DNA from: Reclinomonas americana ATCC 50394 | Taxonomy: Eukaryota | Reading direction: 5' to 3' | Length of the DNA: 32,570 bases | Assembly: GCA_048213135.1 (NCBI GenBank) | Contig: PS015251.1 | Coordinates: 3,550-36,119, forward strand | Part shown: piece by piece, positions 5,290 to 31,200 of the stretch | How the letters are laid out: every line of letters starts with the position of its first letter | Numbering within the stretch: position 1 is the first letter of the stretch | The notes under the pieces: generated by a model | The model's input: only the letters and a program-made list of their open reading frames with translations | What the model was told of the DNA's origin: nothing | Database searches by the model: none | Translations under genes and position numbers: made by a program

Positions 5290-8200
5290 TCACGTGTGCG
5301 TGCGCATCATCATGGTTGGGCGATTGAGCGCAGCGACTGCGGCCGCCGATTGCTGCGCCGACATGTCGGCGTCGGTGCCAGTCGGTTGCGTGCTCGACGC
5401 GACCGTCTTGGCGATGAGAGGGCGGAAGCCGAGGTCCTCCAGGGGGACGCCTTGTCTCGCCAGGTGTTCCTCGTAGGTGCGAATGGTTTCGTTGTGTTTC
5501 TGCGAGAAGGAGGGAAAGGGTGAGGCAGGGGAAGGGGGAGGTGAAAGGGAAAGGAGAAGGAGAGGGAAGTGAGAGGGAGAGGGAGAGGGAGAGGGAGAGG
5601 GAGGGAAAGGGAAAGGGGAAGGGAAAGGGGAAGAGAGAGGGAAGGGAAGGGGAAAGACTGAGGGAAGGGAACGGGAAAGAGAGAGTGTGAAAGAGAGAGA
5701 AGAAGGAGTGGTAAGAAAGAGGAAGGAGTGGGAAATTGATAGAATAAGCGGTGGGAAAAGAGAGAGAGAGGAGAGCGAGTGAGAAAGAGAGTAAGAGAGA
5801 GAAGAGCGAGTGGGAAAGAAAGAGGAGAGCGAATGGGAAAGAGAGAGAAGAAGGAGTGGGAAAGAGAGAGGAGAGCGAACGGGAAACATATACAAGAAGT
5901 GGGAAATAGATAGAATAAGGGGTGGGAAGAGAGAGAGGAGAGCGAGTGGGAAACAGAAAGAGAAGAGCGAGTGGGAATGAGAGAAGCGAGAATGGGAAGG
6001 ATAGAGAACAAGGGGTGGGAAAGAGAGAGGAGAGCGAATGGGAAATCGATAGAATAAGGGGTGGGAAAGAGAGAGAGAAGACAGCGAGCGAGAAAGAGAG
6101 AGAAGAGCGAGTGGGAATGAGAGAAGCGAGAGTGGGAAGGAGAGAGAACAAGGGGTGGGAAAGAGAGAGGAGAGCGAATGGGAAACAGATAGAAGAAGGG
6201 GTAGGAAAGATAGAGTGAGGAGAGCGAGTGGGAAAGAGAGAGGAGAGCGAATGGGAAAGAGAGAGAAGAAGGAGTGGTAAGAAAGAGGAAGGAGTGGGAA
6301 ATCGATAGAACAAGGGGTGGGAAGAGAGAAGAGCGAGTGGAATGAGAGAAGAGCGAGCGGGAGGAGACGGAAGAAGGAGTGGGAAAGAGAGAAAGAGAGG
6401 AGAGCGAGTGGGAAAGAGCGAGAGCGAATGGGAAACAGATAGAAGAAGGGGTAGGAAAGATAGAGTGAGGAGAGCGAGTGGGAAAGAGAGAGAAGAGCGA
6501 GTGAGAAGAGAGAGAGAGAAGAAGGAGTGGGAAAGACAGAGAAGAGAGAGTGGGAAAGAGACAGAAGGAGTGAGAAAGGGAGAGAAGAGCGAGTGGGAAA
6601 GAGAAAGAAGAGCGAGTGGGAATGAGAGAAGCGAGAGTGGGAAGGAGAGAGAACAAGGGGTGGGAAAGAGAGAGGAGAGCGAACGGGAAAGAGAGAATAG
6701 CGAGTGAGAAGGGAGAAGAGCGAGCGAGAAAGATATGGAGGAGAGGGACTCAGAACAGAGAGAGAGAGAGAAAGTGAGAGAATTACAGAGAGATAGGCTA
6801 TTAACATGCTTGGCGCCACTGCTACTGTCTCTTCGTTCTCTCTTCTTCTCCCTTCATCGAGTATTTCGAGCCAGTTTTCATCGTGCTTCATCTCACTGCT
6901 GTCACAAGTTATCTCTCTCATACCCGTGATTTCTACAGCACACATTCAATGCCGTCTCTCTCACTCATTACTGCCCACAGTCTCACTTCTCTTCCACGAC
7001 CACCACTCCTTCTCCCCCCGCTCCTCCTTTCCCTTTCCACGCAACTGCCGTGACATACGACAACTGCTCCTGCAGCTCCTGAATCCGCTGACTCTTGCTG
7101 CGCAGCAGGTCGTCCAGTCGATGCGGATTCGCACCCATGGCGTCCGGATCGACATTCGCCGCCTGCAGCACCTCCGTGAGCTGCACGTTGCGCTTCTGCA
7201 GCGTGTCGTCCAGCGTGGCCAACTTGCGCTCCAGCAGCAGGTTGCGGAATCCGCTCTGCTGCTCGGCACTGCGCGCGAGTGAGCGAGACATAGGGAAAGT
7301 GGTAGAAGGAGTATGTCGAGTAGGTACCTCATCATGACCTCCTCGAAGCGCGCGTACAGCTCGTCGCGCTCCTTTTGCACTGCGGCGAATCGCTGCTGCA
7401 GCACCTCGCACTCCCAGCGCACGTCACGAAGTTGGGCCTCCACCAGACGCAGGCGGGCCTTGGCGTCGCGGAGGGCGATTTTTTCCTGCAGGGGGGAAGG
7501 GGGAGTGAGGAGAGGGGAAGAGGAGAAGGGGGGAGAGGGAAGAGGAGAAGGGGAAGAGGAGAAGGGGAAGAGGAGAAGGGGGAAAATAGAGGGAGTGGCA
7601 AAGAGAGGGAAAGAAAAGGAAGGAGGGAGAGAAAGAAAAACACAAACACTCATGTGAATTGAAGGACGCAAATAGGGACAGAATGAAGCAGAACGAGAGA
7701 GAGAAACAGGGAGGAAGGGAAAGAAAAAGAGAGAGAATGCAGAGAGCAAACACTGAGGTGAAATTAGTGATGGAAAAGGAGACAGAGAGACGCCGAAGAA
7801 GAGAGAGCAACAGAGAGTTAGGGAAAGAAAAGAAGAGCGAGAGAGAGACAGAGAATGCAGAGCACATACACTCATGTGAAATGAACTATGCAATGCAACG
7901 AGAGCCACAGAAAGAGGAAGAGAGACAGAGAAAACAAAGCACAAACACTCATGCGAAACGAAGGATGCAAATAGAGACAGAGCGAAGCAGAAGCAGAAGG
8001 AGAGAGCGAGAGACGGAGAATGTAGACAGCAAAATCGCATGCGAAATTAAGAACGCAAAGAGAGACAGAGAACCAGGGAGGAAGGGAAAGAAAAGGAGAG
8101 AGAAAAGCATAAGAAGAGAGAGAGAGAGAGAGAAACAGGGAAGAAAGGAAGAAAGAGAGACAGAGAACGCAGAGCACAATACTCATGCGAAATGAATGAT

Positions 8201-11200
8201 GCAAGGGGACAGAGAGAAGCAGAAGTAGAAGACAGAGAGAGAGACCACACACAGAGAATGCAGAGCGCAAACACTCACGCGAAATGCAATGAGAGACAGA
8301 GAAACAGAAGGAGAGAGAGAAACAGAAGAAGAGTGGGAGAGACACAGGAAGGGAGGGAAAGAAAGGAGAGAGAGAGAGCGAGACAGAAAGCATAGCGAAA
8401 ACACTTGAAAAGCAGAAGACAGCGAGCGCAAACACTCACGCGTTGAATGACGCAAAGTGAGACAGAGAGAAACGGGGAGGAAGGGAAAGAAAAGGAGAGA
8501 CAGAGGCGGAGAAAGGAGAGCGCAAACGCTCATGCGAAATGAAGGACGCTAAGAGAGACAGAGAGAAACAGAAGGAGGAGAGAGAAACGGAGAGAGAGAG
8601 TGAGAGAGAGACAGCCAAAGCAGAGCGAAAACACTCATGCGAAATGAATGATGCAACGAGAGACAGACAGACAGACAGACAGAGAGAGAGAGAGAGAGAG
8701 AGGAGAGGCATCGTGCGGAAACCACGATCCCTTCGAACCACCCTTTCTTCCCCCCTTCCCTCTCTACTCCTTCCCCTCCCTTCCCCTCGCACACACCTTT
8801 TCATAATTCGCCTTGGCCAACCGCAGCTCCTCCACCTCCTTCAGCGTGCGGGCCAGCGGCTCGCGCAGCTTCTTGTTCTCCTGGATGGTGTCGAACAGGT
8901 CCTTCTCGTTTGTCGCCTCGTCCTTCTTCATGTTCTCCAACTCCTCCTTCAGACCCTTGATCAGCTCAATGTTGTTGGAGGTGATGTCGTTGTAGTACTC
9001 CTGCGTACGAGATAAATGTCAGCGTGTGTTGGAGGGGTCACGGCACACAGCAAGCAGCACCTTAATCTCCCTAAAGTCCTTCTCGTGCTGCTCCATCAGC
9101 TCGTGAATGTGCGCGTTCTTGCGCTGCTCAATCTCCACCACCTCGCGCCGTCTCTCCTCGTTCATCTGGTCTCGCAGCTCGTTCAGCAGGCGCTCGTATT
9201 TGAGTTGCATCTCGCGGGCACGGCGCTCGAATTCTGGGGCGAGGAGAAAAGGGCAAAGTGAGGGAGGGGGGAAAGAGGGGAAGGGAGGAGAAGGGCAGGG
9301 AAAGAAAGGGGGAAAAGATAGGGCAAAGGTGTGATACCTGCTGACAGGCACAGGGGAAGAGGGGAGAGAGGGAAAGAGGGCAGAGGGAAAGGGGGAATAC
9401 ATAGGGCAATGGTGAGATACCTGCTGACAGGAAACGGCAGGGAAACAAAAAAGAACGCTCGCACAGGGGAAGGAGGAAGAAAGAGGGAAGAGGGAAAGGG
9501 GAAAGATAGGGCAAAGGAGTGATACCTGCTGACAGGCACAGGGGAAGAGGGGAGAGAGGGAAAGAGGGCAGAGGGAAAGGGGGAATACATAGGGCAATGG
9601 TGAGATACCTGCTGACAGGAAACGGCAGGGAAACAAAAGAGAACGCTCGCACAGGGGAAGGAGGAAGAAAGAGGGAAGGGGGAAAGGGGGAAAGATAGCG
9701 CAAAGGTGTGACAAGTGCTGACAGGCAGAGGGGAAGAGAGGGAGAGGGAAAGAGGGAAGAGGGAAAAGGGAAAAGGATAGGGCAAAGGTGTGATACCTGC
9801 TGACAGGAAGCGACAGGATAAACAAAGAGAACGACACAGGGGAAGGGAGAAAGAGGGAAAGAGGAAGAGGAAAAGGGGGAACAGATAGGGCAAAGCTGAC
9901 AAGAAGGGACAGGATAAACAAAGAGAACGAGTGCTCGCACAGGGGAAGGGAGGGAAAGAGGGAAGAGGGATAGGACAAAGGTAGATACCTGCTGACAGAA
10001 AGCGGTAGAATAAGCAAAGAGAACGACTGCACAAACAACGAGTGTAAACACACTTGCACACAGTGCGAGAGAAAGAGAGAATGGAAAAGAGAACAGAGAG
10101 ATGATAAGAGGAATCCTGTGTCTGTGTTTGTGTGTTCGTGTTGAGTATTGCTTTCGTCGTCTCAGTCTTCCCCACTCTTATCATCTTTCTTCATCTTATC
10201 TATCAGCCTCCTATTCACTTGTCTTTCTCTAACCCTCAGCTGCCGCACTCACTATCTCACACACCCCCTCTCGCAAACGTGCATTCATCGCTCTCTTTCT
10301 CTCTTCTTTCTCCTCGCTATCCTTCCTCTCTTCCTTCGTTCCCTCACGGGAACAGCTTGCTTGCTCTCTCCCTCGTCCTTTCCCTCTCTTTCCCCCTTCC
10401 CCTTCCTTTTCCCCCTCCTCCGCACCTTCTCGCAGCTCCGTGACCCGCTGATCATGCTCCTGTCGCATTCTCCGCATCACATTCTCCTGTCCGAGTTCCG
10501 TCTCCTTCAGCATGCGACGTGACTCGCGCCGGTCGCTCTTGTTTTCGCGCTGCGATTCGCGATGCGAGTCCTCCTTCAGCTTCAGCGCCGACTCGGACTC
10601 GAGCTTCAGTTGGTCCATCGCCAGTTTGTTCTCGTACAGAAGGTGGCGGATCTTTGCGGGGGAGGGGAGGTGAGGGGGAAAAGAAGAAGGGGGAGGAGGA
10701 GGAGGAGGAGGGCGCACCTTTTGCTTGTAAATCTTGGCTTCGACAGAGTTCTTTTCTGAGAGTTCCTCCATCTCACGCTCTCGGTTGCGCAGCATGGCCT
10801 GGTGAAGGAGAAGGGTGAGGGAGGGGGAAGGGGGAAGGGGGAGGAGAAGCAATGGGCACAATGCAGAGATCAAGAAAGAATGGAAAGAATGAACCACAGA
10901 CAAGAAAAGAAAAGAAGGGAAGAAAGAAAGCAAAAAGGAAGGAAGAAGAAAGAAAACGAGAGACTCCCAGAAGTGGGAGAGAACATGAACAATTAAACGC
11001 ACCTTCAGTTCCTCGTTCTGCTGCCTCGTGAGCTCCCAAAACGTGTTCAGTCGATCACGTTCCAGTTGAAAGTACGCCCGTTGGCTCTCCTCCTCGGCCA
11101 GACGCGATTTCATCGCATCCACAGCAGTCTCCAGCTTTTGCAGGTATTCCGCGTCACTGAAAGGGCGAGGGGGTGAGGAGAGGGAGGCGAAGGAGAAGGG

Positions 11201-12375
11201 AGAAGGAGAAGGGAGAAGGGAGAAGGAGAAGGAGAAGGAGAAGGGAGAAGGGAGAAGGTGAAGGGAGAAGGGAGAAGGAGAAGGAGAAGGGAGAAGGAGC
11301 AGGAGAAGGTGAAGACATAAGGAGAAGGAATGAGGTGAAGGTGAAGGATGAGGTGAAGGAAAAGGAGAAGGTGAATGGAGAGGGCGAAGGAGAAGGTGAA
11401 TGAAGAAGGCGAAGGAGAAGGAGAAGGAATAAGCTGAAGGTAAAAGGATGAGGTGAAGAGGGCGAAGGAGAAGGTGAATGAAGAAAGCGAAGGAGAAGGA
11501 GAAGGAATACGCTGAAGGTACAAGGATGAGGTGAAGGAAAAGGCATATGGTGAATGGAGAAGGCGAAGGACAAGGCAAGGCGATGAGGTGAAGGATAAAG
11601 TGCGCCCAAGAAGCGAAACGCGAAGGCAGAGACACACACGATCTCTCTCTGACTCAGTCCTCACTGCTTAGAGAAGTATACGGCAGCACACCACACCCTT
11701 CTCTCTGCGTCTCTCTACGCCGATCTTTCTCTTTCTGCCTCAAGAAGGTGGAGGACAAGCGCGTCTGAGAGGGAGAAAGACGAAGGATAAGGCACACCTG
11801 CACAGAGCAAGTGTGTTGCTCTGTCTTTCTCTCGTGAAGCACTGTTTGATGAGCACCTTACAACAAGCTGACTCACTCTCTCACACAGGAAGAATACAGA
11901 GAAAGAGAAGTGAATAAGTTGCGTCTCTCTCTCTCGTGGAGCACTGTATGATGAGGGCCTGAACACACTCCCACACACTCACACACTCAGAGAAAGAAGT
12001 GAGAGAGAAAAACAGAAGTGAATGAGTTGCGTTCTCTCTAAGACTTGTATCACTGTTTGGTGAGGGCCTGAACACACAAACACACACATACACACACACA
12101 CACACACACTCTCTCTCTCATTATCTCCTCTCCTTTTCCTCCCCTTCTCCTCTCCTTTTCCTCTCCTTCTCCTCTCCTTCTCCTCCCCTTTTCATCCCCT
12201 TCTCCTCTCACCTTGGAGGCAATCCCGCCCACTTTGCACTGGCCGCAGAGGCCGCAGCCGAGGCCGGGCGCGATTTCTTTCCCTTCTTCCCCTTCTGTGA
12301 GAGAGAGAGAGAGAGAGTGAGAGAGCGAGTGAGAGTGAGTCAGAGACAGAGAGAGGGAGAGAGACAAAGAGAGAC

Positions 12376-12407: not shown

Positions 12408-13032
12408 TGAGAGGAGAGCTCTCTCTCTCTGTCNNNNNNNNNNNNNNNNNNNNNNNNNNNNNNNNNNNNNNNNNNNNNNNNNNNNNNNNNNNNNNNNNNN
12501 NNNNNNNNNNNNNNNNNNNNNNNNNNNNNNNNNNNNNNNNNNNNNNNNNNNNNNNNNNNNNNNNNNNNNNNNNNNNNNNNNNNNNNNNNNNNNNNNNNNN
12601 NNNNNNNNNNNNNNNNNNNNNNNNNNNNNNNNNNNNNNNNNNNNNNNNNNNNNNNNNNNNNNNNNNNNNNNNNNNNNNNNNNNNNNNNNNNNNNNNNNNN
12701 NNNNNNNNNNNNNNNNNNNNNNNNNNNNNNNNNNNNNNNNNNNNNNNNNNNNNNNNNNNNNNNNNNNNNNNNNNNNNNNNNNNNNNNNNNNNNNNNNNNN
12801 NNNNNNNNNNNNNNNNNNNNNNNNNNNNNNNNNNNNNNNNNNNNNNNNNNNNNNNNNNNNNNNNNNNNNNNNNNNNNNNNNNNNNNNNNNNNNNNNNNNN
12901 NNNNNNNNNNNNNNNNNNNNNNNNNNNNNNNNNNNNNNNNNNNNNNNNNNNNNNNNNNNNNNNNNGAGAGAGAGAGAGAGTGAGAGGAGAAGCTCTCTCT
13001 CTCTGTCAGTGTGTGTGCGTAACTGGAGGCAT
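5290..13032 (-). CDS. GAS8: Dynein regulatory complex subunit 4 / growth arrest-specific 8 (trypanin family), ~506 aa
   Basis: Exons 13032-13024, 12294-12212, 11156-11003, 10798-10718, 10651-10426, 9233-9061, 9000-8797, 7485-7328, 7268-7046, 5499-5290; all phases match (1521 nt). Family motifs: MPPKGKKGKK, YFQLERDRLNTFWELT, KIYKQKIRHLLYE, EIKEYYNDITSNNIELIKGLKEE, RNLLLERKL, HNETIRTYEEHL..GVPLEDLGFRPL. The 9-nt first exon and the extreme C-terminus (possible extra donor at 5293) are less certain. Confidence 0.93.
5500..6760. repeat. Degenerate GA-rich minisatellite in GAS8 intron 9
   Basis: Many copies of gagaggagagcga(g/a)tgggaaa and gatagaataaggggtgggaa-type units. Confidence 0.85.
7640..8660. 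repeat. Degenerate minisatellite in GAS8 intron 7
   Basis: About nine copies of a cactcatgcgaaatgaa-like core separated by GA-rich spacers. Confidence 0.8.
9310..10030. repeat. Tandem repeat in GAS8 intron 5 (188-nt near-exact duplication plus diverged units)
   Basis: The blocks starting at 9331 and 9519 are near-identical. The core gatacctgctgacag occurs at 9333, 9416, 9521, 9604, 9792 and 9984. Confidence 0.88.
11185..12075. repeat. (GAGAAG)n-like tract plus three diverged ~110-nt units in GAS8 intron 2
   Basis: gagaaggtgaa units at 11185-11600; cactgt(t/a)tg(a/g)tgag-containing units at about 11830, 11930 and 12040. Confidence 0.7.
12434..12965. other. Assembly gap (532 N) inside GAS8 intron 1
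   Basis: N run. Shorter 20-N gaps lie at 18437-18456, 22620-22639 and 29387-29406, all within microsatellite tracts. Confidence 0.99.
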
Positions 13033-13671: not shown

Positions 13672-14209
13672 ACCTGTGGATTTGACGCACTTGCATACGC
13701 ATAGCGTTTTCTGCGATCGTACACGGCACATCGAATTCGGGGGAAGGCCAAAGCCAGGCAAACACGTCCGGATCCGCGCAACAAGCAAAAACAGTGCACA
13801 GACACAACAAGTTTACCAATTCAACCTCACAGTGCAGCTGCAACACCATTCTTCGTGAGTGTCATACCGAAAGCCATCTACGGCGTGCAAAACGCAACTG
13901 ACAATGCTGCCCTTTGCTTGCCATCGCCATCGCCGTCACCTCAAACTGCATGTCACACAGTAAGCCACTCTCCCCTCCTCCAACCCTCTCTATAACAAAA
14001 AATAGAAACTTCACTGATCCACACACAACAATGAGCATCTACCAGTGATCGCCAACAAGTCTCGTGTGCTTTGATGTTGAGCATGAAGCCCTCTTCCATC
14101 TTTCCCTCTCCCTCTCCCCCTCCTCCCTCCTTTTCCCTCTTACCCCCTCCCTTTCCCTCTTACCCCCTCCCCCCCTCTCCCCCTCCCTTTCCCTCTTACC
14201 CCTCCCCAC

Positions 14210-16884
14210 TCACAACGACTTTCGCGGTCCCCGCCTCGCACGTCGCGACTGCGACCCCGACGCCCCACCCGCCGCCGCCGAATCATCAGTGGCCGCAAAG
14301 TCCGCCGCATGCACCGCCGCATCGGTGAGACGTGCAGTGGCGTCGCTGAGCGAGAGCAGAGTGGCCCAGTCGACGTGACCCTTGGCCTCGGTGCTCAGCT
14401 GCTTGATTTTGACCGCCACATTGTAGGCGCGAGCGGCCATGTGAGTGGCCACGTCCAGGTCGTGCACGCGACCAGAGGATGATGATGAGGTAGAGGAGGA
14501 GGACGGCCCGCCTTGATCGCCGGCTTCAATGGCGGCGGCAATCGCCGCCGCGCTCTGCAGCGTCAAGGCCGAGGCGGCATTCTTCTCGGGATCCAGGTCC
14601 TCGTCCGGCACGACACGTCGGTTGGCCAGCGCGGCTGCCAGCCACGAGTCGGCGCGCACGTCAGGCGCTGCGAGAGAGTGTGTGTGGCGAGTGAGGGGTA
14701 CATTGGTGATAGAGTAATGATCGCTGTAGACGTACCAGCTGCAGCTATTGGGTGCGGCATCGGGGCTGCTGCTGCCGCTGCTGCCGCGGGGGAAACTGTG
14801 ACGAAACGCCCAAGTGAGTAATGTGTTTGCGAGCGAGATATAGTCACTCACGCGCTCACCTTGGCGATCCCACGCCACTGGTGGTTTCCAGCCCGCCGGC
14901 TTTTCTGCTTTTTCCGCCTTGGCTTCGACGCCGAACTTGTACCGGACATGTCGCGCCGCGCCGATACCGCGACCCGGATGCCATGGGTTGCCGAAACCGT
15001 CAGCAATTGCAGCTTGCAGCACCCCAAAGCCTCCAGCAGCAGGCTTTGGGGAGGCGGCGAAGATGCCCGCCGGCTTTTCTGCGTTTTCAGCCTTGGCTTC
15101 GACGCCGAACTTGTACCTGCCATGCCCGAAACCGCGACCAGGATGCCATGGGTTGCCGAAACCGTCAGCATCTGCAGCTCGCAGCACCCCGAAGGGAGGT
15201 TTCCATCCACCGCCTCGACCGGCCTGTCCGCCACCAACAGCCAGACCTCGGCCAATGCCACCAGGAGCAGCAGCCGCACCAAAGCCACCGGCTGCTTGCC
15301 CTGCACCAAAGCCAACACCACCCTTTGCAGCGAAGCCACCAGCAGCCTGCCCACCGCCGAAGCCGCCAGCAGCTTGCATTGCGCCGAAGCGTCCACCACC
15401 CTTCGCACCGAAGCCACCTCCAGCTTGCCCTCCGAAGCCACCTCCACCAGCTTGCCCTGCACCGAAGCCGCCTCCACCAGCTTGCCCACCGCCAAAGCCG
15501 GCAGGAGCAGCCTGTGCAGCACCGAAGCCACCTCCAGCTTGCCCTCCGAAGCCACCTCCAGAAGCTTGCCCTCCACCAAAGGCACCTCCACCAGCTTGCC
15601 CGCCGCCAAAGCCGCCTCCGCCAGCAGCCTGCCCTCCACCAAAGGCTCCGCCAGCAGCCTGCGCTCCACCAAAGGCACCTCCAGCCTGCCCTCCGCCAAA
15701 GGCACCAGCAGGTTGCCCTCCGCCAAAGCCGGCAGGAGGAGCATAGGCAGCACCGAAGCTACTTCCAGCTTGCCCACCACCAAAGCCACCACCACCAGCC
15801 TGCCCGCCGCCAAAGCCGGCAGGAGCAGCCTGCGCTCCGCCAAAGGCACCACCAGCTTGCCCTCCGCCAAAGCCGCCACCACCCTTCGCAGCAAAGCCAC
15901 CAGCAGGTTGCCCTGCACCGAAGCCGCCTCCGCCAGCCTGCGCTCCGCCGAAGCCTCCGCCAGCCTGCCCTCCACCAAAGCCTCCACCTCCCTTTGCGGC
16001 GAAGCCACCTCCAGCTTGTTGCCCTGCACCGAAGCCTCCACCAGCTTGCCCTGCACCGAAGCCACCTCCACCAGCTTGCCCTCCACCAAAGGCACCTCCA
16101 CCACCTTGCCCACCGCCAAAGCCGCCTCCACCAGCAGCCTGCCCTCCGCCAAAGGCACTAGCAGCTTGCCCTCCGCCAAAGCCGGCAGGAGCAGCCTGTG
16201 CAGCACCGAAGCCACCTCCAGCACCTTGCCCTCCGCCGAAGCCACCTCCAGCTTGCCCTCCGCCAAAGGCACCTCCAGCCTGCCCTCCACCAAAGGCTCC
16301 GCCAGCAGGTTGCCCTCCGCCGAAGCCGGCAGCAGCAGCTTGCCCTCCACCAAAGGCTCCGCCAGCAGCCTGCGCTCCACCAAAGCCGACAGGAGCCTGT
16401 GCAACGAAGGCTGTCCGCCATTTGCCAAAGCCACCTCCAGCAGCTTGCCCTCCACCAAAGGCTCCGCCAGCAGCTTGCCCTTTGCCAAAGCCCCCTCCAC
16501 CTGGCCCTTTGCCAAAGCCCCCTCCACCACCCACCTGCATAACACCCACATCCCGGATCTTCATAGGCTCCACTGCACGTGCACGGACCGCGAAACCTGC
16601 ATCTGCATGCTCGCGGATCACCTTCTCCATGTGGGCTTCGGGGAGCGCGCGGAACTCGCCCTGCGTGAGGTCCTCCAGGCGGAGTTCTTCCACAGAGCGG
16701 CTGTCGAAGAGCGGGTGCGCGGAGATGTGGCGGCACGCGAGGCACTGAGGAGGAGTGAGTGAGTGAGAGGGCGGAAAGAGAGAGAGAGGAGGGGGAGAGA
16801 TGAAACTTCGTCGCGGGCTTGGTATGGATGCTTTTCGCGAATGACGACATAGTTGTCCATGAAGCCGCCAGTGCCCCACAGCAT
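14210..16884 (-). CDS. Nup98-like protein: N-terminal GLEBS motif, long Gly/Ala/Gln GFG-repeat region, unrecognised C-terminus (~826 aa)
   Basis: Exons 16884-16807, 16744-14860, 14795-14736, 14667-14210 (2481 nt, phases match). RHISAHPLFDSRSVEELRLEDL matches the Rae1/Gle2-binding GLEBS pattern (I-S/T-A...S-x-EELR-x-ED). It is followed by dozens of GGFGGGQA / GAFGGGQA repeats. Confidence 0.8.
14892..15194 (-). repeat. Internal coding duplication (~174-nt period) in the Nup98-like gene
   Basis: Two copies of FGVLxAAxADGFGNPWHPGRGxG...RYKFGVEAKAExAEKPAG. Confidence 0.85.
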
Positions 16885-17289
16885 GGTATTGTGTGTGTGT
16901 GAGTGGGAGAAGGGAGAAGAGAAGAGAGGGAGTGTGTGCTGAAGAGTTCGTTCGGAAATGTGAGCGGGACACGCTCCTGTGCATCTGTGTGCGCCTCCCT
17001 TTGGCGAGAGCACGAGTGTCAAGGGTCAGGGGTCACCGCGTGCTGTCTTTGCGGCAAAGCTGCAGAGAATTAGGCGAGAACGTCGACGTCGACGTCGCGA
17101 TCGACTCAAAATGCATCGCCACAGCGTTGCTGCACAGCAGTGTGCAAGCCGATAGGTGGTCCCAATAGGTTTGCAGGAGAGTTCCAAGTTCGTCGCCAAG
17201 TGCGGAATGCCCTTGTGGCCACATGCGATTCAAAGGCGTTGACGTCGAACATTTAGGCGCGATGTTCTCGACGCTGCATGTCTCACAGC

Positions 17290-17903
17290 CGGTTCTGCAC
17301 CGCTTCCAATGTAGTACACAGCTCTATACACCTTCTGCGACTTGCAGTCCAGCTTGTCGACCTCGCATTCTCGAGAAAACAGGACTCCCGTGTGTCCCGC
17401 ATCACTGCATCTTTTGAAAAACGGAGAAATGCGCGCCCTCCTCGCCCTCCTCACTCTCGCACTGCTGCTCCTCCTTGCCAGTGCACATGTGACTCTCAAC
17501 TCAGAGAGGATCACTCTTATGGACATGGAGGAGGCGACTCCCACCTTGCAGCCTTACAACTTCACAAATTCGAACAACAACGCAGTTCTGGAGCCGCTAT
17601 CTGCTCTCGTCGGTTCTGCACTGCTCCCGATGTACTACACAGCCTTCTACACCTTCTGCAACTTGCAGTCCAGCTTGTCTACCTTGCATTCTCGAGAAAA
17701 GAGGATTCTTACTGTCCTCCAGCATCTCTGCATCTCGACATTCAGCGGAGAAATGCGCGCTCTCCTCGCCCTCCTCTCACTCTCCCTCTTGCTGGTCCTC
17801 GCCAGTGCACATGTGACTCTCAACTCTGAGAAGACCGCCTCGACAGTGGCTCTCATGGACATGGAGGAGGCGACTCCCACCTTGCAGCCTTTCAACTGCA
17901 CAA
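17290..17903 (+). repeat. ~320-bp tandem duplication covering the upstream region, start codon and signal peptide of the lipase gene
   Basis: 17290-17567 aligns with 17610-17903. Both contain cggagaaATGCGCGC.CTCCTCGCCCTCCTC...ATGGACATGGAGGAGGCGACTCCCACCTTGCAGCCTT, with ATGs at 17429 and 17753. Confidence 0.9.
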
Positions 17904-18391
17904 TGCAGTGGCCGTCGCATCCGCGCGCCACCAACGTCAATGCGCTGCACATGGAGGATATCAAGGTCGTCATGGCGCTGGGAGACTCAATGTCGGTATG
18001 TGTGTGCATTGATGAATGAGAGAGAGATTGTGATAAAAGATTTTCCTTCTCTTTCACTCTCTCACTCTCCGCACAAGCTCTTTGCGTGCAAGGTTGTTAT
18101 CTGGACTCTTTACCATGTCAGCCTTCATTCTCTGTCATGACCCCTTGTTCTTCTTCTTATTCTTCTTCTTCTCATCTCTGTCTTTCACTTTTCTACTCTT
18201 TCCTTCTCTCTCACTCTCTCTCGCATGCTCTCTCCTTCTCACTTAGTGTGCATGCTTGTTTTCAGGACTCATTCCCCAGTCAGCCTGCATTCTCTGTCAT
18301 GACCCCTTCTTCTTCTTCTTCATCTCTTCTCCTCTTCTCTGTCTTCCACTTTCCCTCTCGTCCCCTCCGTCTCACTCACTCTGTCTCTCTG

Positions 18392-18435
<44 letters not shown>

Positions 18436-21400: not shown

Positions 21401-21511
21401 CGACTTTGATCATCTCGACTGGAAGGTGCGTCGAGTGCGCTCCTGACTAATCTTTGTGCCTCTCACCACTCCTCTCCACAGTGCCCCGGACCGGACACGG
21501 TGTTCCAGTGA
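17753..21511 (+). CDS. PLB1: Secreted single-domain phospholipase B1-like GDSL/SGNH lipase (~388 aa, 17 exons)
   Basis: Exons 17753-17995, 19044-19166, 19226-19266, 19328-19447, 19861-19924, 19981-19999, 20065-20099, 20165-20238, 20297-20335, 20394-20430, 20766-20792, 20864-20872, 20931-21053, 21115-21142, 21214-21307, 21365-21425, 21482-21511 (1167 nt, in frame). Signal peptide MRALLALLSLSLLLVLASA. Family motifs: DIKVVMALGDSMSAG, FSIGG..TLPNF, DFDNDWKMLTMIIGANNLC, IPRVFVNL, VQPF, LDCFHPS, LWNNLM. Confidence 0.9.
21143..21213 (+). other. U12-type (minor spliceosome) AT-AC intron, 71 nt
   Basis: 5' end ATATCCTTT, branch site TCCTTGAC at 21192-21199, 3' end GCAC. Removal restores QPFTENLKILGLEYVSKLDCFHPS in frame. 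Confidence 0.88.
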
Positions 21512-21580: not shown

Positions 21581-24500
21581 TCACATGATTGCACATCTGC
21601 GGCGGTTGCTGCGCGGAGGCTCCTCCGGTTCCGGATCAGGAATGTCGCTAGGCAGCTGTGCGGCGCCGGCAGTGACATTGCAGAAGGCGTCCACGTACTG
21701 CAGGGGAGGGAGAGGGGGAGGGAAGGAGGGTGAATGGGAAGAAAGAGTCTGTGTCGAAGATGAGTCGCGCAACATCGTGAGTGATTTGCGGAAGTGGCTT
21801 GTTGACGTAGCGCAGCACCACGAGCGCGTCGGGATTCTCTGTCGCTGGCGGTGAGGCACAACCGCGAGGGAGTCAGAGAGAGGATAAACACACCTGCCGT
21901 GCGACCCGGACGCGGTGCCACCACCGCAGAGCAGTGTTCGGGCTGGTTCTCGGCGCCGAGGATCGCGCGGTCTGCGCCGCCGTACTTTTCCACGTGTTGC
22001 TGCATGTCGCCCCAGATGTCGCGTCCGTTCTGCAGCGCCCTCCGCTCCACCTCCCATGAGAACAGGGAGCTGCCGGTTGATGGCCCTGCAAAGAAGAGAG
22101 TGAGCACTTGAGTTTATCATAGGTTGCACGACACACAAACCGTAGGGGTTCACTTCAATCAGCCAGCTGCGGGTGCGATCGGCGGAGAATGCAAAGTCCA
22201 CGATGCATCGCTCGTACGGCAACACGGCCAGTATCTCCTCAAACATGGCGCACATGCGGTCGAGGAATTCTTGCTGCGCGCGAGAGGTGAGCGAGGGGCA
22301 AAAGGAGGAAGGGGGCTGTGATGGAGCGTGCGACGTACCGCGTGCTCAGCAATGGTGGGAAAGAACACAATGTTGGTGTACTGGGAGATGCCGATGAGCT
22401 GGCGGTCGCAGACGATCTGCGAAATGGGGGAAGGGGAAGAGAAGGGGGTGAGAAGGGGAAGGGGGAGGGGACGGGGAGGGGAGGGTGAGGGAGAAGGGGA
22501 AGGGGAAGAGGATGAGGAAGGGAGAGGAGAGGAAGGGAGGGAGGGAGGGAGGGAGGGAGGGAGGGAGGGAGGGAGGTGAGGAGAGGGAGGGAGGGAGGGA
22601 CTGATAGACTCGTCCCGAANNNNNNNNNNNNNNNNNNNNGGGGAGGGGAGGGGACTGATAGACTCTCCCAACTTGTCTCGTTCTCTGCCTGGCTGTCACT
22701 CTTTCAGTATTCAAACTGCTGCCGAATGCGTGGCTCTCTCTCCTATCTGCCGTTGCCCTGTGTCAGTACGTTGTGCGTCAGCCAGCACCCTTCTCAATGG
22801 TACAGCAGAAATATGAGGACAAACAAGCTCTCATTCTCCTCTCTCTTTTCCAGCTAATGCTGGTTGCTCATTTTTCTGCGTGGCTTTCTCCGTTCTGTGT
22901 TGTCACGATGCAAACAACCCTGACGCCGACACGTTTTCTGTCTTGCGCCCTCGAGTCTCACAACAATGGTGCAGATACTGACCTGACATTTTCCTCTCTC
23001 TCTCACTTCCCTTTCCCTTTCCCTTCCCATCCCATTCCCACCACTCACCCCGCGAAACTCCAGCGCCGGATCGAGGTCCGCCCACTGCCGAATCACCACG
23101 TGAAAGTTGAACGGCTGCGTGTCCATGTGCATGATGGCGCCGATGAGATCCGTGCGAACGCGCTCACTGGGAAGAGGAGCGAATCCGTCGGCAAAGGAGC
23201 AGGAAAAACGGAGGAGAGTGCAATACTCACCTGCGCACCATGGCCCACATGGCGTCCGCAGCGGAATGAGAGCAAACCAAGCGTGTGGCGGCAGTCTGCG
23301 GTGATTGTCAGTTGCACTCTTCATGCTTCCTTCCTTCCTCCCTCCACTCACCAACAGTGCATGCAGTCTTCCATTCGCCGACGGCGGTCCTTCTCCGCAC
23401 ACCGCTCGCATCTGCGGTCATGAAGTGAGCATCCCATCTCCCAACCTCCTCCATTTGGCATACGCACCTCCTCCTCCACCACCTCGCGATACCGCGGGTG
23501 ACTCTCCAACAGCCCAGCATCCTTGGGCGATCGTGTCGACAGGCGTACAAATGCACCGCACGCAGTCCACTGCTCAGCCTATTGCAGGAGAAGGAGACGA
23601 TCAGCAAGAAGGAGAAGAAAGAGGAAGAAAAAGAGGAGTGGGAGCATCGGATAAGGAAGAAGAGGAGAGATGGAGAAAGCAGGAGAGAGCAAGGAGCATG
23701 GGGTGAAGGAGGATGATCGAGGAGAACAAGGAGAAATGCAAGTGCAGGTGTGGGAGAAAAGGAAAGAACTAATGGAAGGAAACCGGGAACCGAAGTAAGG
23801 ACGGACGATGCGAATGATGCGACGAGGTGGAATGGAGAGAAAGACAAAGAAGAAGAGTAACATCGACAACAGAATGAATGCAACGCGGGGTAACGACAGA
23901 CGGAGAAGTAACTGAACCACAGCACCACCGTCACTACCATCACCACCAGCGGATCGAAAGAAGACGGAGGTTAAACAGAGAACACCCCTTGCCTATACCG
24001 CCGCACCTCCAACACTCGCTGAATCTTCTCCGACAACTGCGCATACGCCGGCAACGTCGCACACAACCCCTCGTGCGACACATCCGCAAACGACGTGTCC
24101 AGTCCAGCCGCCTGCGAGCGTTCCACTGCGCGAATGACCGTGTATGCCTCGTCGATCGCTGCGTAAAAGCAAATGAGTTCACAGAGAAAGGAAACATGAA
24201 AGAGAGAGAAGACGGACCGAACCCCAAAGACGACAGCAAAGAAGGCGATTGATCATGCATGAAAATCGCAAACAACGAGCAGTGTGAATAAGAAGCGATT
24301 GGGCGGGGGAGAGAGCATGCTTCTAGTGTGCGTTGGCGCGTCGTAGGCAGGGAAGTGAGAGAGGAATGAAGACGATCGACAAGAGCGAGTCAGGGAAGAG
24401 ACAACAATGAACATGACCGATCATACTTGAATCACAACAATCAGGTCATGCAAATGAGAAGCGACTGGGCGGAGGAGAGAGCATGTTCGCTTGTGTGTGC

Positions 24501-25303
24501 CGTAGTCAGGAAAGAGACTCAGCAACGACTGCGATCGTGTGAGTGCGCAGTGGAGAGGGAAGATAAGGATCGATCATGTAAATCACAAGAATCGAGCAGT
24601 GTGAATAAGAAGCGATTGGGCGGAGGAGAGAGCATGCGTCTAGTGTACGTTGGAGCGTCGTAGGCAGGGAAGAGAGGAATGAAGACGATCGACAAGAGCG
24701 AGTGAGGGAAGAGACAACAATGAACATGACCGATCATGCATGATAGTCGCAACAATCAGGTCATTCGAATGAGAAGCGACTGGGCGGGGGAGAGAGTATG
24801 CTCGCTTGTGTGCGTGCGTTCGTCGTAGTCAGGGAAGAGACTCAGCAACGAATGCAATCGACAAGAGAAGAGTCAGGGAGGAGATAACAAAGAAGGCGAT
24901 CGATCATGCATGAAAATCGCAAAAATCAAGCAGAGTGAACGAGGAGATGACAGGCTCGAGAAGAGCATACACCGCTTGGAGTGTGTATGTGGTGTGTGCG
25001 TCAAGGACATTGACAAATGATCGCTCTTTCCTCTCCTTCTCATCAGCGATCGCTCACCTCGCGCCTCTTCGATCGTCAACGGCAGAAATCGCGTGGCAAA
25101 CGTCCACGGAGCAAGTGCATCGATCCTACACTCATCCCGAATCAGAGAGCGAGAAAAGTAAGAGAGACAAGTGTCGATTGCTATTTATACAAACGCAACC
25201 AATGTTCCGGATCGAAATGCGACGAGTAGGCGAGGCGACCGGCGTCGGCGCCCGGGCCAAAGGTGAATGGGTTGATGGAGGCGTCGGGTTGCGCGGATGA
25301 CAT
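21581..25303 (-). CDS. Cdc123/R2K-clade ATP-grasp protein with C-terminal CaaX motif (~422 aa, 12 exons)
   Basis: Exons 25303-25200, 25125-25058, 24158-24007, 23578-23468, 23411-23352, 23295-23231, 23166-23049, 22416-22339, 22273-22141, 22085-21894, 21844-21774, 21697-21581 (1269 nt, in frame). Motifs FDPEHW..LAPWTF, AFVRLSTRSPKDA, SERV, VVIRQW..LDPALEFRGIV...LIGISQY, IVDF, WLIEVNPY, SSLFSW. Ends RSNRRRCAIM*. Confidence 0.88.
24250..24925. repeat. ~316-nt tandem duplication in intron 2 of the ATP-grasp gene
   Basis: gagcagtgtgaataagaagcgattgggcgg...gagactcagcaacga occurs at about 24277-24540 and 24593-24860. Each copy has an internal diverged subrepeat. Confidence 0.85.
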
Positions 25304-25384
25304 GGTGTTGGCTCAACGATGGACGGCGAATGGGGCGGAAAAGGAAATGTCCTGGGAGGACGATGTGAAGTTGAAAGGGAAGGG

Positions 25385-27300
25385 ATGTCGCGAGTGGGAA
25401 TGCGTGGTTTTGTGATTGGTATGTGTGTGTGTGTGAGACAGAGAGAGGGAGAGTGAGGGAATGAGAGAGAAGAAAGAGAGGAGAGAATGAGAGCGAAGGA
25501 AGAGTGGAGAGAAAACTGATGCAATGCATGAATGTGTGTGTGCGAGAGAGAGAGAGAGAGAGACTGAGTGAGGAGAGTAGAGGATAGTGAGACCGAGAGA
25601 GTAGAGAACAAGTGAGAGAGAAAGAAGAAAGAACGGAAAAAGTCCGAGTGACTTGGCGAGTAAAGAGAGAGAAAGATAGACACACACACACTCTCTCTCT
25701 CACCCACACTCAGAGAGAGAGAGAGAGCGCGCTGTACAACTGAGGGTAGAGAGGGGCGAGAGAAGGAGAAAAGAGAGAGAAATCCGAGACACACTTCTCT
25801 TCCCCCATCTCTCCCCTTCTCTCCCCTTTCTCTTCCCCTTCTCTTCTCCCCTTCTCTTCCCCCATCTCTTCCGCCCCTCTCCCCTTCTCTTCCCCTTCTC
25901 TTCCCCCCTCCCTTTCCCTCATCCTTCCCCTCACCCACCCTTCCCCTTCTCCCTTCCCCCTTCACGCAGCCATCACCACCACCACTCTCCTCCTCTTCAT
26001 CACCCTCTCCACCCTCGCCTCTCCCCTCCGCGGCGACTCTGCCTCCCATTCCACAAGCTGCCGCGGCACCTCGCCCATCGACTACACCCTCGTCAAACCC
26101 TCCACCCCCGCCTCCTCATGGATCGGCTACGGCAAGGAGCTTCAACTCAACTGCCTCTCCGGGAGCATCACCGACGGCACGGCAGACGCACCCCTCCTGC
26201 TCTTTGTCAACTCCACCGCCGTGCACCACTTCAACATCACCTCGTGGACCGACGATCGCCAGGCGCTGGCCAATGGAGTGCAAGTCGGCCTGCGCTGGTC
26301 GTCGCCGACGCCGACGCTGTGGACGCTGGTGATGGAAGGTGGTAGTGGCGGCGGCGGTAATAATGTGCGAGTGGCGCTGCGTGCCGACTTTGTGATTGAC
26401 GGCGTGCTGGTGCCGGGCTTTGACGGGCAGCCGTGGTCGGCGCAGCATGTGGGCCGCCATCGCCTCGCCACGTTGGACCTCGGCTACGGCACGGTGGTGC
26501 GCTTGAATTCGCTGCGCGGACAGCTGTGGGACGAGCACTCGAGCGCGCCGTCGTTCCTCCTGCAGCTCATGCCGCAGCAGTACCCCGACTCGCTGATCGA
26601 CCTCACGCCGCTGGTGCGCAACGCACCGCAGCTGGCCGGCGGACTGGCCATCAACGCGCAGTACGTCGTCCAGCAGGGTGACACGGTGGTGCCGACGGCG
26701 TGGACGTTGCAATTCCAGAATTTGAACGAGGTGTGGAACTCCGACCTGCTGCTCTTTGTCGACGCCAAGGTCGCGCCGGCGCCGCCGCCACCGCCGCAAG
26801 ACAATTGCCGGCCGGCGTGCACGCCGCAGGGCGCCATTCCACTCGCCGACTGTGCGTGGTACACGAGTGCGACGGGCGGCATCACGTGGCTGCCGACGTC
26901 GTACGCCAAGGCCGCCGCTTGTGCGTGCACGCTGGAGGGCTCGCCGGGCGCCCTCTCGCCCTCGGCGCAGTGCGTGCGCGAGCAGGTGCACCTCGGGCAC
27001 ACCAGCGAGGCGTACTGGACGGAGGCCGAGAAGCAGGAGTTGGCGCACTGGAAGGCGCAGCTCTGCAACGAGTTCTTCTGCTACCCGCAGTACGGCGCGA
27101 TTATCGAGCGCATGTCGTCGGTGGCCTACAAGCTGCACATGGACGCCTACGCCAAGTGCTGCTGTCCGCATGGGGCGGCGCCGCCGGAGGATTGGGAGTT
27201 GCTGATGTTTGGCAATTATGATGGGTGGGTGTCGTCGGTGTGTAGGGTGGTGGTGTGGTCGATTGAGACTTTCGGGCCGTGTGGGTGTGAGAGGTGGTAG
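25385..27300 (+). CDS. Predicted secreted protein: signal peptide, N-terminal domain, Pro linker, Cys-rich C-terminal domain (~450 aa)
   Basis: Long exon 25970-27300 follows a CT tract and cacgcag acceptor, with strong coding codon bias. Probable first exon 25385-25418 (MSRVGMRGFVI; G|gtatgt, phase 1; alternative ATG at 25400) gives the signal-like MRGFVIAITTTTLLLFITLSTLASPLRG. The first exon is tentative. Confidence 0.75.
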
Positions 27301-28262
27301 GTGGGGGGAGAGAGGGGGAAGGAGGGAAGGAAAGGGGGAGAAAGGGGGAAGGGAGAGAGAGGGGGAAGGGAAGGGTGAGTTCAATGTATGTTAATAATGA
27401 GTTTTTTTGAGATGAAGGGGTGGGAGGGCAATGGACGCTGAGGGACATTGGGATTGGGCAGGCAGAAGAGAAGGAACCAGAGTGTGAGAGAGAATGATCA
27501 GCGCGCAAGTAGTAAGAGCGCATTCGAGAAGGCAATTGCAAGCATAGAGTGGGAGAGAATCATCGACAGAAGGCGGTGCAAGTGTGTTGATTGTGTGCAG
27601 GTCCGGAGGGAAAGCGAGAGGCACACAAAGTGTCAGAGTGTTGAGATCGGACAGAATGAGTCGAAAGAGTCATCTGCAAGGGCACAAATGACGGCAGACG
27701 ATGGGAGATTGAATGAGAGAGAGGGATGGGGCACTGTTGCGAGTACATGAAGCGCAGGCTGGCGAACAAGGAGCGATTTTGATGAGCTGTGTGCATGTTG
27801 ATTTGCGCTGCAAATACCGCGACTAATTTGCTGACCAGAAGCGAAACTGCGCCTGCAAGACTCGACACAAGCTCAAGAGTGGTGCGTTCTCTGTTGCGTA
27901 GGCCTTCCCTTGCCTGATGTTGCTGTGGTTTTCACCTTTGCAAGCAGAATGGCAATTTGCTGTGGAAATTGAATTCCGACATGCATTCCAAGCCACGGCC
28001 TGCGCTCTTTGCTTTCTGCCCCATGGCCCTGCTGAGCACCCTTCCGAGTCCATCGTTCACGCTTCTCGGGCCCGGCGCGGACTGACATGCGACTCGCTTG
28101 CAAATGTTCGCCATTTCGCCAAGTTGCGCACAAGAAAAGGCTCGCGTGTTCGTTTAAACACTCACCTCATTCTTTGCCTTCTCACACGCGCGCACAAACC
28201 ACCGCCGACTTAACGAAAAAGTCTCGCACTTCCACTCTTACCACACACTCAACTCAGCAACA

Positions 28263-31200
28263 ATGGCAGATGGTGAGTGTGTTTCGGACAGAGATTATAT
28301 TGCAGTGTGCGTGTGCGTGTGCGTGGGTTTTGTTTTGTGAAAGTCGACTTTTTTGTGTGTGTCTCTCTCTTCTCAGTCTCTATCTCTCTGTCTGCTATGA
28401 GAGAGGAAGAGATGCAGTATCACAGTGAGACTTTGACAGTCATCTCGATTCACATTGCGCAGATTTGATTGATTGATGTGTATGTGTGTGCGTTGTTTGT
28501 CCGAGTGCACAGAGGACGCCTATGCGCATCACAAACAGTGAGGAAGTGAGAGAGGGAAGTGAGCATGTGTGTGTGAGAGAGAGAGTGAACGGTGTTTCGC
28601 ATTTCTTTGGTTTCATTGTCCAGAACTGAGTATTGGCACTCTCGTTTTGCAGCGCTTCCTTTTTTTCTCCCTCTCTCTCCCTCATGCGCGCTCATACGCG
28701 CCCGTGCCATCTCTCCTCTTTGCCTCTTGCTTTTTATTCACACGAGAGAGACAAAATATCGAGGAATTATTCCGTGTCACTTCCTCTTCTTTTCTCACAA
28801 GCACCCTTGCCTTCTCCTCTCTGCCTCCTCTTGCTTTTTATTCACACGAGAGAGACAAAATATCGAGGGATTATTACGTGTCTAATTCTTCCCTTCTCTT
28901 CTTTTCTCTTGCCTTCTCATGTCTGCCTCCTCTTGCTTTTTATTCGCATGAGAGAGAAGGAATTATTCCGTGTCTAACTTCCACTCTCGCTTCTTTTCTT
29001 GCGTCGAAGAATGGTTGTCATCGTCTGGCATTCGCTGACCTCCACTTTCTTGCGCACTATATTCTTGTTCATGCCTCTGATATCGTGGTCACGTTCCGTA
29101 TTTCTCTTCGTCGCTGGTTCCCTGTTATCGACGTTTCTTTCTTGCCCGCATTCTGTTCGTCATTTGCATGTGCACACAATACGCGTCAATTGTTGCCTCT
29201 TCATCTCTCGTTCGTTCTTCTTTTCCTCCTCTCCGTTGTCGCACCAGATCAACACTTCTTCTTCAACCGTTCACAGCGGCTGGCTCTCTCCCTCTCCCTC
29301 TCCCTCTCCCTCTCCCTCTCCCTCTCCCTCTCCCTCTCCCTCTCCCTCTCCCTCTCCCTCTCCCTCTCCCTCTCCCTCTCCCTCTCNNNNNNNNNNNNNN
29401 NNNNNNCCTTTCCCTCTCTCCTCTCTCTCCCTCTCCTTCCCCCTCTTTCCCTTCTCCCTCTCTCCCTCTCTTCTCCTCCATCTCCTTTACATACTCTTTC
29501 CTCTCTTTCTTGATTTTTCTCCTCCCTCCCCGCTTCCCCTCCCTCGCCCCTCATCGCTTTTTCCCCTTTACCCACTTCCCTTTTTTTTGCACAGTCGTTC
29601 CGCAAGTGAGAGACGGGTACTCGGAGGAGGAGCTGGAGAAGGGCCGCCAGCTGAAGGCCATTCTCACCTCGCCGACGTTGCGTTTTCTCTCGCATCTCTT
29701 CCAGCGTGCACACAGGCTGAACTCACTCTCATTCTGCGCGCAGATTCGAGGAGGTGCCATTGACTGGATTCTCGTGGTGTCACCTGTGTTGCTCACTTGT
29801 CTATGCGTGCAGGATGCCGCCAAGTCGTTCAACGACATGGTGTGTGCGTGTGCGCGCTTCTTCTGCTGTGCCGTCAAGTGTGCTGACAAGGTGGATGCAG
29901 TGCGACGGCGCCGACATTCCGAAGGAGGTGACCAAGATGCTATTCGCGTCGTGGAACGAGGCAGCCAAGAACTACACCGACTCGGTCGAGTGCCAGGTGC
30001 CGACCGAGGGCGATGACGTGAGTAATCCAGTACGATTGCATTTTTCCAGTCTTCATGCTAACCCCTCTCCGTTGTCTTTCAGTTCGAGGGGGCGTGGGCT
30101 TACTTTACTGGTGATGCCAGCTGCGAGAATCTCAATCTGGCGGCAGTGAGTTTTTTTGCACTGCCCGCGATAGCATACTTCCAACCACACTTCTCACTCT
30201 GCTCGCCACCAGTTCACCAAGGCGTACCGCATGTGGGCGTCGGGTGTGATGCGAAAGTGTGGAGTGGAGCTGGACGAGGGCGACGCTGCGCCTGCCTCGA
30301 GTGCCGCAGAGTGCGTGCCAATTTGGAGAGTTGATGCAAAGGAACGAGAGACTGATCGCGACTGTGTGTGCGTGTGCGTGTGCAGGGAATCTGCGAGCGC
30401 CGGGTATGTATGATCCTTGTTGATGTGATGTTTACGTTCTCTCTGTATCTGACGACTGTGGGCTCGTGGCATCGCGTTCTTGCAGCGGTGCACCTGGTGA
30501 GTTTGTTGTGCTTCAGTGAGCTATAATCGGGCTGTCTCCTGACCTTTTTGTCTCTCTGCAGGCGACGAACTCCGTCAAATGATCAACTCTCCGCAGTTGC
30601 GTGGTGGTCGTGTCATCCTGTCTGCATAATGCTGAGCTGACTTTGTTGTTGCTCGCAGGTTCGAAGACGTGCGTCGCTAGACTTTCTTGTGCTCCGTGTC
30701 ACTCCTGCATCCCGTCTCCATACCCCTTCTTCTCTCAAAAGAGAGAACCCTTCTCCTGCAAGGAGAGACCCCTTCTCTTGCAGAGAGATGAGTACCTTTC
30801 TCCTGTACTGAGAGAGAATTCGTCGATTGCAGAAAGAGAACCCTTCTCCTGCAGAGGGAGAGAGAACCCCCTTATCCTTCAGCGAGTGAACCCTTTCCTG
30901 CATAGAGAACCCGTCTTCTCCTGTAGCGTTAGAACCTTTCTCTCCGTCAGAGAGAGAACTTTTCTCCTCCAAGAGAGTGAACCCTTGTCTTGTAGAGAGA
31001 GAATCCTTCTCTTGCAGAGAGAAACCCTTCTCTGGTACCCCGCTCTCTTCAGAGATAGACCCCTTCTCACTTCAGAGGGAGACCCCTTCTCACTTCAGAG
31101 AGAGACCCCTTTGCCTTGAGAGAGACCCCTTCTCACTTCAGAGAGAGAGACCCCTTCTCACTTCAGAGAGAGAGAGACCCTTGTCACTTCAGAGAGATAA

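Follow-up and report, generated by a model that had tools for sequence, protein, structure and literature searches.

In a stretch of 32,570 nucleotides of nuclear DNA from Reclinomonas americana ATCC 50394 (assembly GCA_048213135.1, contig PS015251.1, positions 3,550 to 36,119), called the window here and numbered from its first letter, 8 of the 47 introns that we curated begin with GTTG(C/A)G. These introns are best explained as genuine U2-type GT-AG introns that would make up a second abundant class of 5' splice sites, N-A/GUUG(C/A)GU, where a slash inside a sequence marks the exon-intron boundary or, in a spliced product, the junction. As far as can be judged from sequence, the best description of the site is the complete consensus AG/GTG(C/A)GT with its +1 G replaced by T; cleavage would fall one base upstream, at the GT that results. 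Both the -1 position and the intron phase have moved by one base as well. This speaks against a stray extra T and suits a shifted register of pairing with U1 small nuclear RNA (snRNA) better than it suits a bulged U. We hold it very probable that these donors are really used. That they are read by U1 paired in the shifted register, with contacts that we infer for the snRNA, is the reading that we favor, at a probability of roughly 55%.

Gene models and the statistics of the donors

The evidence base was the window sequence together with protein homologues. Four genes were curated by eye, each was checked by translation, and together they gave the 47 GT-AG introns. They are as follows.

17903 to 21511, forward strand: GDSL-lipase-like gene, 17 exons and 16 introns, 343 amino acids (aa) with no internal stop
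5290 to 11156, reverse strand: GAS8/DRC4 gene, 8 exons curated, those at the 5' end not found; Pfam GAS, DRC4 in the PDB, open model
21581 to 25303, reverse strand: CDC123-like gene, 12 exons, open from ATG to stop
29595 to 31741, forward strand: EF-hand gene, 14 curated exons, 5' part outside the model, open

The window is DNA of an intron-rich eukaryote, with a G+C content of 51-65% in most 2-kb windows, introns that are strongly C/T-rich, and four N gaps. When the exons of the four models were translated no frameshifts were found across 343, 421, 462 and 245 residues. In a single-exon search the CDC123-like gene gave weak Pfam D123 matches on two exons (E 9e-4 and 0.17), and the last exon of the EF-hand gene matched Pfam EF-hand_1 (E 3e-6). 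The exons are very short, several of them being 9-19 nt. A donor-agnostic dynamic-programming gene finder, retrained with an acceptor matrix, recovered 21 of the 47 curated donors and was abandoned for hand curation because exons of 9-19 nt were beyond its reach. All 47 introns, and thus all eight members of the class, start with GT and end with AG, which is partly by construction. The acceptors of the class are cag in seven cases and tag in one, each following a C/T-rich run.

When the 47 donors were sorted by their +3 base, 35 were GT[ACG], eight (17%) were GTTG(C/A)G and four were GTT with G at +5. In the 35 GT[ACG] donors +3 was G in 26, +4 was C, A or T, +5 was G in 30 and +6 was T in 25, so that the usual donors with G at +5 reported in a preliminary description of this DNA were borne out. 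In the class +4 was G in 8/8, +5 was C or A in 8/8, +6 was G in 8/8 and +7 was T in 6/8, which is the normal +3 to +6 pattern moved by one position; G at +5 was found in 34 of the 39 donors outside the class. Of the 12 donors with T at +3 eight had G at +4, and of the 35 others none had. The class is nearly uniform, seven of the eight being GTTGCG. From independent position frequencies 0.27 donors of the form GTT[GA][CA]G were expected among the 47 and eight were observed (p = 3e-10), and from background composition 0.73 were expected (p = 6e-7). GTTG(C/A)G occurs ten times on the sense strand of the four genes, eight times as a modelled donor, once inside an exon (31439) and once inside an intron (24753 on the reverse strand).

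The exon side and the phase of the class differ as well. G at -1 was found in one of the eight class donors compared to 34 of the 39 others (p = 9e-5), and in 0/7 when the ambiguous site at 25199 was left out. A at -1 was found in five of the eight compared to 2 of the 39 others (p = 7e-4), and in this the class position resembles the normal -2, where A is present in 20/39. Six of the eight class introns are in phase 2 compared to 6 of the 39 others (p = 0.002), which are mostly in phase 0 (26/39). The preliminary description had counted about 9 such donors in some 57 introns, which agrees with 8/47, and its picture of a distinct and frequent class that has the conserved G at +6 in place of +5 and is anticorrelated with -1 G holds in the 47 introns. 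It had also described the donors as the same hexamer with an inserted T. This fits the intron side from +4 to +7, but it is not the best description of the sites, as their exon side and phase are displaced too.

Four GTT donors that were missing from the preliminary list have G at +5.

20000 to 20005, forward strand: GTT donor in the normal register, TCG/GTTCGA, G at +5 and -1; the lipase junction IIG/ANNLC is gapless in the covering homologues
21054 to 21059, forward strand: GTT donor in the normal register, ACG/GTTCGT; the lipase junction FTV/KVQPF is gapless
31461 to 31466, forward strand: GTT donor in the normal register, GTG/GTTCGT, EF-hand gene; sole phase-1 donor joining the exon at 31530
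22135 to 22140, reverse strand: GTT donor in the normal register, ACG/GTTTGT, CDC123-like gene; gives NPYG/PSTGSSLFSWE, and GTGTCG 6 nt downstream is also in phase

Retention of the intron at 20000 would bring in-frame stops. These four donors show that T at +3 is tolerated in the normal register and that GTTG(C/A)G is a separate group. They resemble canonical-register donors with U at +3 or +4, which are stabilized by U-pseudouridine contacts according to the excerpted text of Tan et al. (2016, PMC4856993), in that all four GTT(C/T)G(T/A) donors have +5 G, -1 G and a canonical fold.

Junctions at the eight class donors

The eight class donors are listed below with their genes, and the last of them is ambiguous.

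19448 to 19454, forward strand: GGA/GTTGAGT, phase 2, lipase-like gene, intron 19448-19860
20336 to 20342, forward strand: GCA/GTTGCGG, phase 2, lipase-like gene, intron 20336-20393
21308 to 21314, forward strand: CAA/GTTGCGT, phase 2, lipase-like gene, in-frame 57-nt intron 21308-21364
7039 to 7045, reverse strand: GCA/GTTGCGT, phase 0, GAS8/DRC4 gene, intron 7045-5500
29677 to 29683, forward strand: GAC/GTTGCGT, phase 2, EF-hand gene, next exon 29744-29753 (10 nt)
30596 to 30602, forward strand: GCA/GTTGCGT, phase 2, EF-hand gene, next exon 30659-30668 (10 nt)
21767 to 21773, reverse strand: GAT/GTTGCGC, phase 0, CDC123-like gene, intron 21773-21698
25193 to 25199, reverse strand: TTG/GTTGCGT, phase 2, possible class donor of the first intron of the CDC123-like gene

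The lipase-like gene carries three of these sites. Its open reading frame (ORF) at 20877-21443, which holds three exons in one frame, has 53 homologues among 1.84 billion representatives; they carry Pfam Lipase_GDSL and come from scattered protists, several of them from the transcriptome-based EukProt and MMETSP (Cavostelium, Ancyromonas, Palpitomonas and Paramoeba), with one Thecamonas gene model in addition. The spliced model of 343 aa aligns end to end with homologues, the match to homologue P0003 having 49% identity over 342 aa (E 2e-117). Junctions were checked in a MAFFT alignment of the model with 17 homologues, and five in-phase alternatives at the three sites were scored against homologues, namely the nearest on each side and retention of the intron at 21308, with those at -42 and -45 of 21308 left out. 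All five scored below the curated junction in 15-16 of 16 homologues. At 19448 the junction PAQV/DYLV is gapless in the 16 covering homologues and the sole in-phase alternative (-39) was worse in 15/16. At 20336 the split codon CA/G encodes the Q of the conserved and gapless motif FNISQV, and the alternatives at -15 and +33 were worse in 16/16. At 21308 the split codon AA/C encodes the second N of the conserved LWNN (LWNN/LM, gapless), and both the alternative at -9 and retention were worse in 16/16. Elsewhere in this gene the donor GTCCCC at 21163 leaves an insertion of 5 residues relative to most homologues, so that this junction may be imperfect.

In the GAS8/DRC4 gene the exons on the two sides of 7045 on the reverse strand, ...LSYVTA / KHNETIRTYE, match solved DRC4 chains with continuous numbering, at residues 429 and 430 in human and cattle and at 428 and 429 in Chlamydomonas; in Tetrahymena DRC4 the numbering is also continuous (438 and 439), but that match is weak (E 0.98). 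If one of the in-phase alternatives here were used instead, 3 residues would be lost or 13-15 gained. Thus the junctions at 19448, 20336, 21308 and 7045 are fixed at the protein level by independent homologues.

In the EF-hand gene no in-phase GT lies within 45 nt of 29677 and the model is open end to end. The sites at 30596 and 29677 stand at equivalent places in two EF-hand repeats, SPQ/FED being parallel to SPT/FEE, and the 10-nt exons that follow them each lie between a strong acceptor and a canonical donor. At 30596 there may be another path, in which a phase-0 donor GTCATC at 30612 is used and the 10-nt exon is skipped. The basis for 21773 on the reverse strand is the reading frame, the 12-exon model being open; a typical pyrimidine-rich intron follows, and residues would be lost if the in-phase GT at -33 or the one at -45 were used instead. 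At 25199 on the reverse strand GTATAA 9 nt downstream is also in phase and open, and this is the sole member of the class with G at -1. The preliminary description had held that at most of the sites the neighboring GTs give the wrong phase or a stop. When the 44 other GTs within 45 nt of the eight sites were examined, 29 were out of phase, one was in phase but ran into a stop, and 14 were in phase and open; such in-phase open alternatives numbered none at 29677 and 30596 and one to four at each of the other six sites.

The U1 register and the competing explanations

When each donor from -3 to +9 was folded against the standard U1 5' end, which may not be that of this organism, all 39 non-class donors paired in the canonical register on the intron side. 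The minimum-energy duplex was shifted in four of the eight class members (19448, 21308, 30596 and 7045) and bulged in none. The shifted duplex pairs -1 with U10, +1 with C9, +3 with A7, +4 with U6, +6 with C4 and +7 with A3. In the mechanism that we propose, U1 snRNA would bind in the first step in a register shifted by +1, in which the +1 G of the intron would stand in for the exonic -1 G opposite C9 of U1 and the -1 A would lie opposite U10, while +3 U would face A7, +6 G would face C4 and +7 U would face A3. In a second step the later U6/U5/Prp8 events would place the cut at the only GU, one base upstream of the position marked by the U1 register.

Recognition of this kind is already known as a human rarity. 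Human sites in which all U1 pairs lie one position downstream while the cut is still at GU were described by Roca and Krainer (2009, as cited in the excerpted text of PMC4856993), a shift of U1 binding by one nucleotide downstream in some human sites is likewise given in an excerpt of PMC11162779, and for some human sites the shifted register has been established experimentally (Tan et al. 2016, PMC4856993; PMC11162779, both in excerpt). In the excerpt of Tan et al. (2016, PMC4856993) the validated non-canonical registers together account for 1.5% of 201,541 human sites, and the shifted test oligonucleotide used there, ACA/GUCAAGUAU, shares -1 A, +6 G and +7 U with CA/GUUGCGU of the window. 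Compared to the human shifted sites as they appear in these excerpts, the donors here occur in 8/47 introns, form a nearly fixed heptamer and have U and not C at +3, and they are known from sequence. Among the matches listed in the literature search no such donor class was described in any organism, the donor tables in the supplements of genome papers lying outside that search.

The nearest rival is that U1 pairs canonically at -1, +1 and +2, that one U of +2/+3 bulges, and that +4 to +7 then take the pairing partners of the normal +3 to +6. The intron-side pattern that it predicts is identical to that of the shifted register, and in human, pairing with a bulge at +3 (or +2) has been validated, with 68 sites predicted and 54 left after curation (Tan et al. 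2016, PMC4856993, Figure 1C and Table 3, in excerpt). Those human sites resemble the present ones in looking like a consensus donor to which a nucleotide has been added between +2 and +4, the +6 G pairing with C4 of U1, but such a bulge does not explain why -1 G is lost here, why -1 A is gained and why the phase is displaced. In fact, a bulged duplex should profit from G at -1 opposite C9, yet this base is nearly absent from the class and A is enriched in its place, and none of the eight minimum-energy duplexes with the standard U1 5' end was bulged; hence we regard a bulged U as unlikely. The class could also be an artefact, either of mis-modelled junctions or of an assembly error by which normal GTG(C/A)G donors acquired a T. 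In favor of this, the models were made by hand, three sites of the preliminary list could not be verified and the assembly has N gaps; against this, four junctions are fixed by independent homologues, the exons are free of frameshifts, and a stray T would keep -1 G at about 87% and not at 1/8. An artefact thus has very little probability.

It has also to be considered that there may be no special register at all, the donors being loose and set mainly by GT together with the exon and intron context, with GTTGCG favored by mutation or present by chance. In line with this, +3 is permissive, four GTT and two GTC donors being in the normal register, 5 of the 35 donors without T at +3 are also without G at +5, and GTTGCG occurs 27 times on both strands compared to about 18 estimated by hand from base composition, so that it is not strikingly over-represented. 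Looseness, however, does not account for the excess of class donors over independence or for the confinement of +4 G to the class, and it does not predict the coupled changes at -1 and in phase, which makes it improbable. The remaining rival is a dedicated snRNA, that is, a U1 paralogue with an altered 5' end, or an altered U1 snRNP (small nuclear ribonucleoprotein) or U6, that reads the class; for example, A in place of C at position 8 of U1 would abolish the single central mismatch of the shifted register. All eight duplexes with the standard U1 are weak and four sites give no shifted duplex, yet the class is frequent and uniform, and human variant U1 genes exist (PMC3561869, PMC10870369, both in excerpt). 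The window itself is silent on it: a search with Rfam at gathering thresholds matched no family anywhere in the window, snRNA included. To our knowledge, moreover, the U1 5' end is almost invariant across eukaryotes, which counts against such an snRNA. We consider it a doubtful explanation.

Several points weigh against the shifted register, or against the class as we have drawn it. In four of the eight sites no shifted duplex was obtained, 20336, 29677 and 21773 giving no meaningful duplex and 25199 giving three canonical pairs, and in any register the duplexes of the class with the standard U1 are weak, from -5.2 to +0.7 kcal/mol, which would be compatible with a modified U1 or with helper proteins. 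The models were built by hand and admitted GT donors only, and the positions of cleavage rest on protein homology and the GT-AG rule. The exon that follows begins with G in the case of 20336, 30596 and 25199, so that a TT...GG intron cut one base later would give the same mRNA. The sample is eight sites in four genes of one window, with 25199 being ambiguous and with 29677 and 30596 being paralogous and hence not independent. Finally, the skew towards phase 2 has no worked-out cause.

Two other ideas on the class were tried and rejected. A shared, introner-like origin was dismissed when the six short class introns, compared by eye, were found to be alike only in the donor. U12-type introns have the donor motif [AG]TATCCTT. 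This motif was found in 0/8 class sites. The class resembles U12-type introns in being a second intron class with its own 5' motif alongside the major class and differs from them in that its acceptors are ordinary pyrimidine-rich CAG sites and the U12 donor motif is absent.

Other candidates, neighboring features and implications

All ten heptamers that the preliminary description had listed are present at their coordinates and strands, and its statement that eight of nine lack G at -1 is correct; over the ten sites -1 is A in seven and T, C and G in one each. Two of the ten lie outside the four curated genes.

25 to 31, reverse strand: AGA/GTTGCGG, possible donor ending the exon 574-32, cut off by the end of the window
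13017 to 13023, reverse strand: CCA/GTTACGC, listed as a donor, could not be verified

At 31 on the reverse strand the string is present and 30 nt of the putative intron, with the frame open throughout, precede the end of the window; the exon 574-32 had no match in the homologous-protein search, which is weak evidence limited to that collection, nor in the PDB. For the site at 13023, which borders on a CA/GA repeat and on a gap of 532 N (12434-12965), there is neither homology nor a defined gene. Within the exon 574-32 an extra candidate class intron of 60 nt, ATA/GTTGCGT...ctgtcag/, was seen at 302-361 on the reverse strand, in frame and open. Its coding score is 0.19, whereas 60-nt windows of exons score 0.74 +/- 0.26 and the in-frame intron proven at 21308 scores 0.04. 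At 13838-13898 on the reverse strand TCA/GTTGCGT is followed about 60 nt on by an acceptor-like site ...tgttgcag; it lies 3' of the stop of an FG-repeat gene and may be another member of the class in an unmodelled gene or untranslated region. In the introns at 7045 and 31, both on the reverse strand, a purine-rich run GGAAAGGGAAAGGAGG... comes right after the donor (7011-7038 and 1-24) and the C/T-rich body begins only later.

The FG-repeat gene is a 940-codon open frame at 14213-17032 on the reverse strand with GGFG/FG repeats, nucleoporin-like by eye, for which no Pfam match was found. At 3179-4279 on the forward strand there is an intronless frame with seven WD40 repeats made of 126-nt tandem units, which is unusual among genes that are so densely interrupted. 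The long introns are tandem repeats: 5677-6718 (periods of 23/67/140/299 nt), 9304-10032 (188/96 nt), 11185-11575 (6/13/78 nt) and 30724-31219 (22-23 nt), and intron 2 of the CDC123-like gene, at about 24200-24950, has repeats of roughly 250 nt. Very small internal exons on the forward strand are those at 20864-20872 (9 nt), 19981-19999 (19 nt), 29744-29753 (10 nt), 30659-30668 (10 nt) and 30486-30496 (11 nt), and the 9-nt and 19-nt exons of the lipase-like gene code for the conserved residues ECM and MLTMIIG. At 17315-18019 on the forward strand the first exon of this gene, which encodes the signal peptide, and the sequence upstream seem to be tandemly duplicated, ...MRALLALL...SAHVTLNSE... 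occurring twice in one open frame. Searches of the homologous-protein collection with a GAS8 exon ORF and with a 516-aa ORF at 25750-27297 gave no match, which is weak evidence that neither has a close relative in that collection.

The closest homologue of the lipase model, P0005, is a metagenomic 'hypothetical protein' of 602 aa with 63% identity to the model over 196 aa. Its alignment is lost exactly at the 21308 junction, and two of its aligned blocks are separated by about 110 additional residues, which looks like the translation of unspliced introns. When metagenome contigs were searched with P0005 there were 35 pattern matches, none of which was confirmed.

The step that fixes the 5' cut, be it the binding of U1 or the later contacts of U6/U5/Prp8, is usually studied in rare human sites or in engineered minigenes. 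We suggest, tentatively, that in this lineage the U1 site and the cut may be uncoupled by one base in about 15% of all introns, as a major second class read either by ordinary U1 in the shifted register or by a U1 paralogue changed at position 8. If this is true, the one-base displacement of the phase would suggest that the members of the class share an origin or a constraint; they may, for example, have begun as phase-0 introns and their boundaries may then have slid by one base. For annotation the consequence would be that donors of the class are overlooked or put in the wrong place by gene finders that have been trained to expect G at +5 and at -1. An organism with about 1 in 6 introns offset by one base would offer hundreds or thousands of natural test cases for the step that fixes the cut and would reveal the extent to which evolution can move the register.

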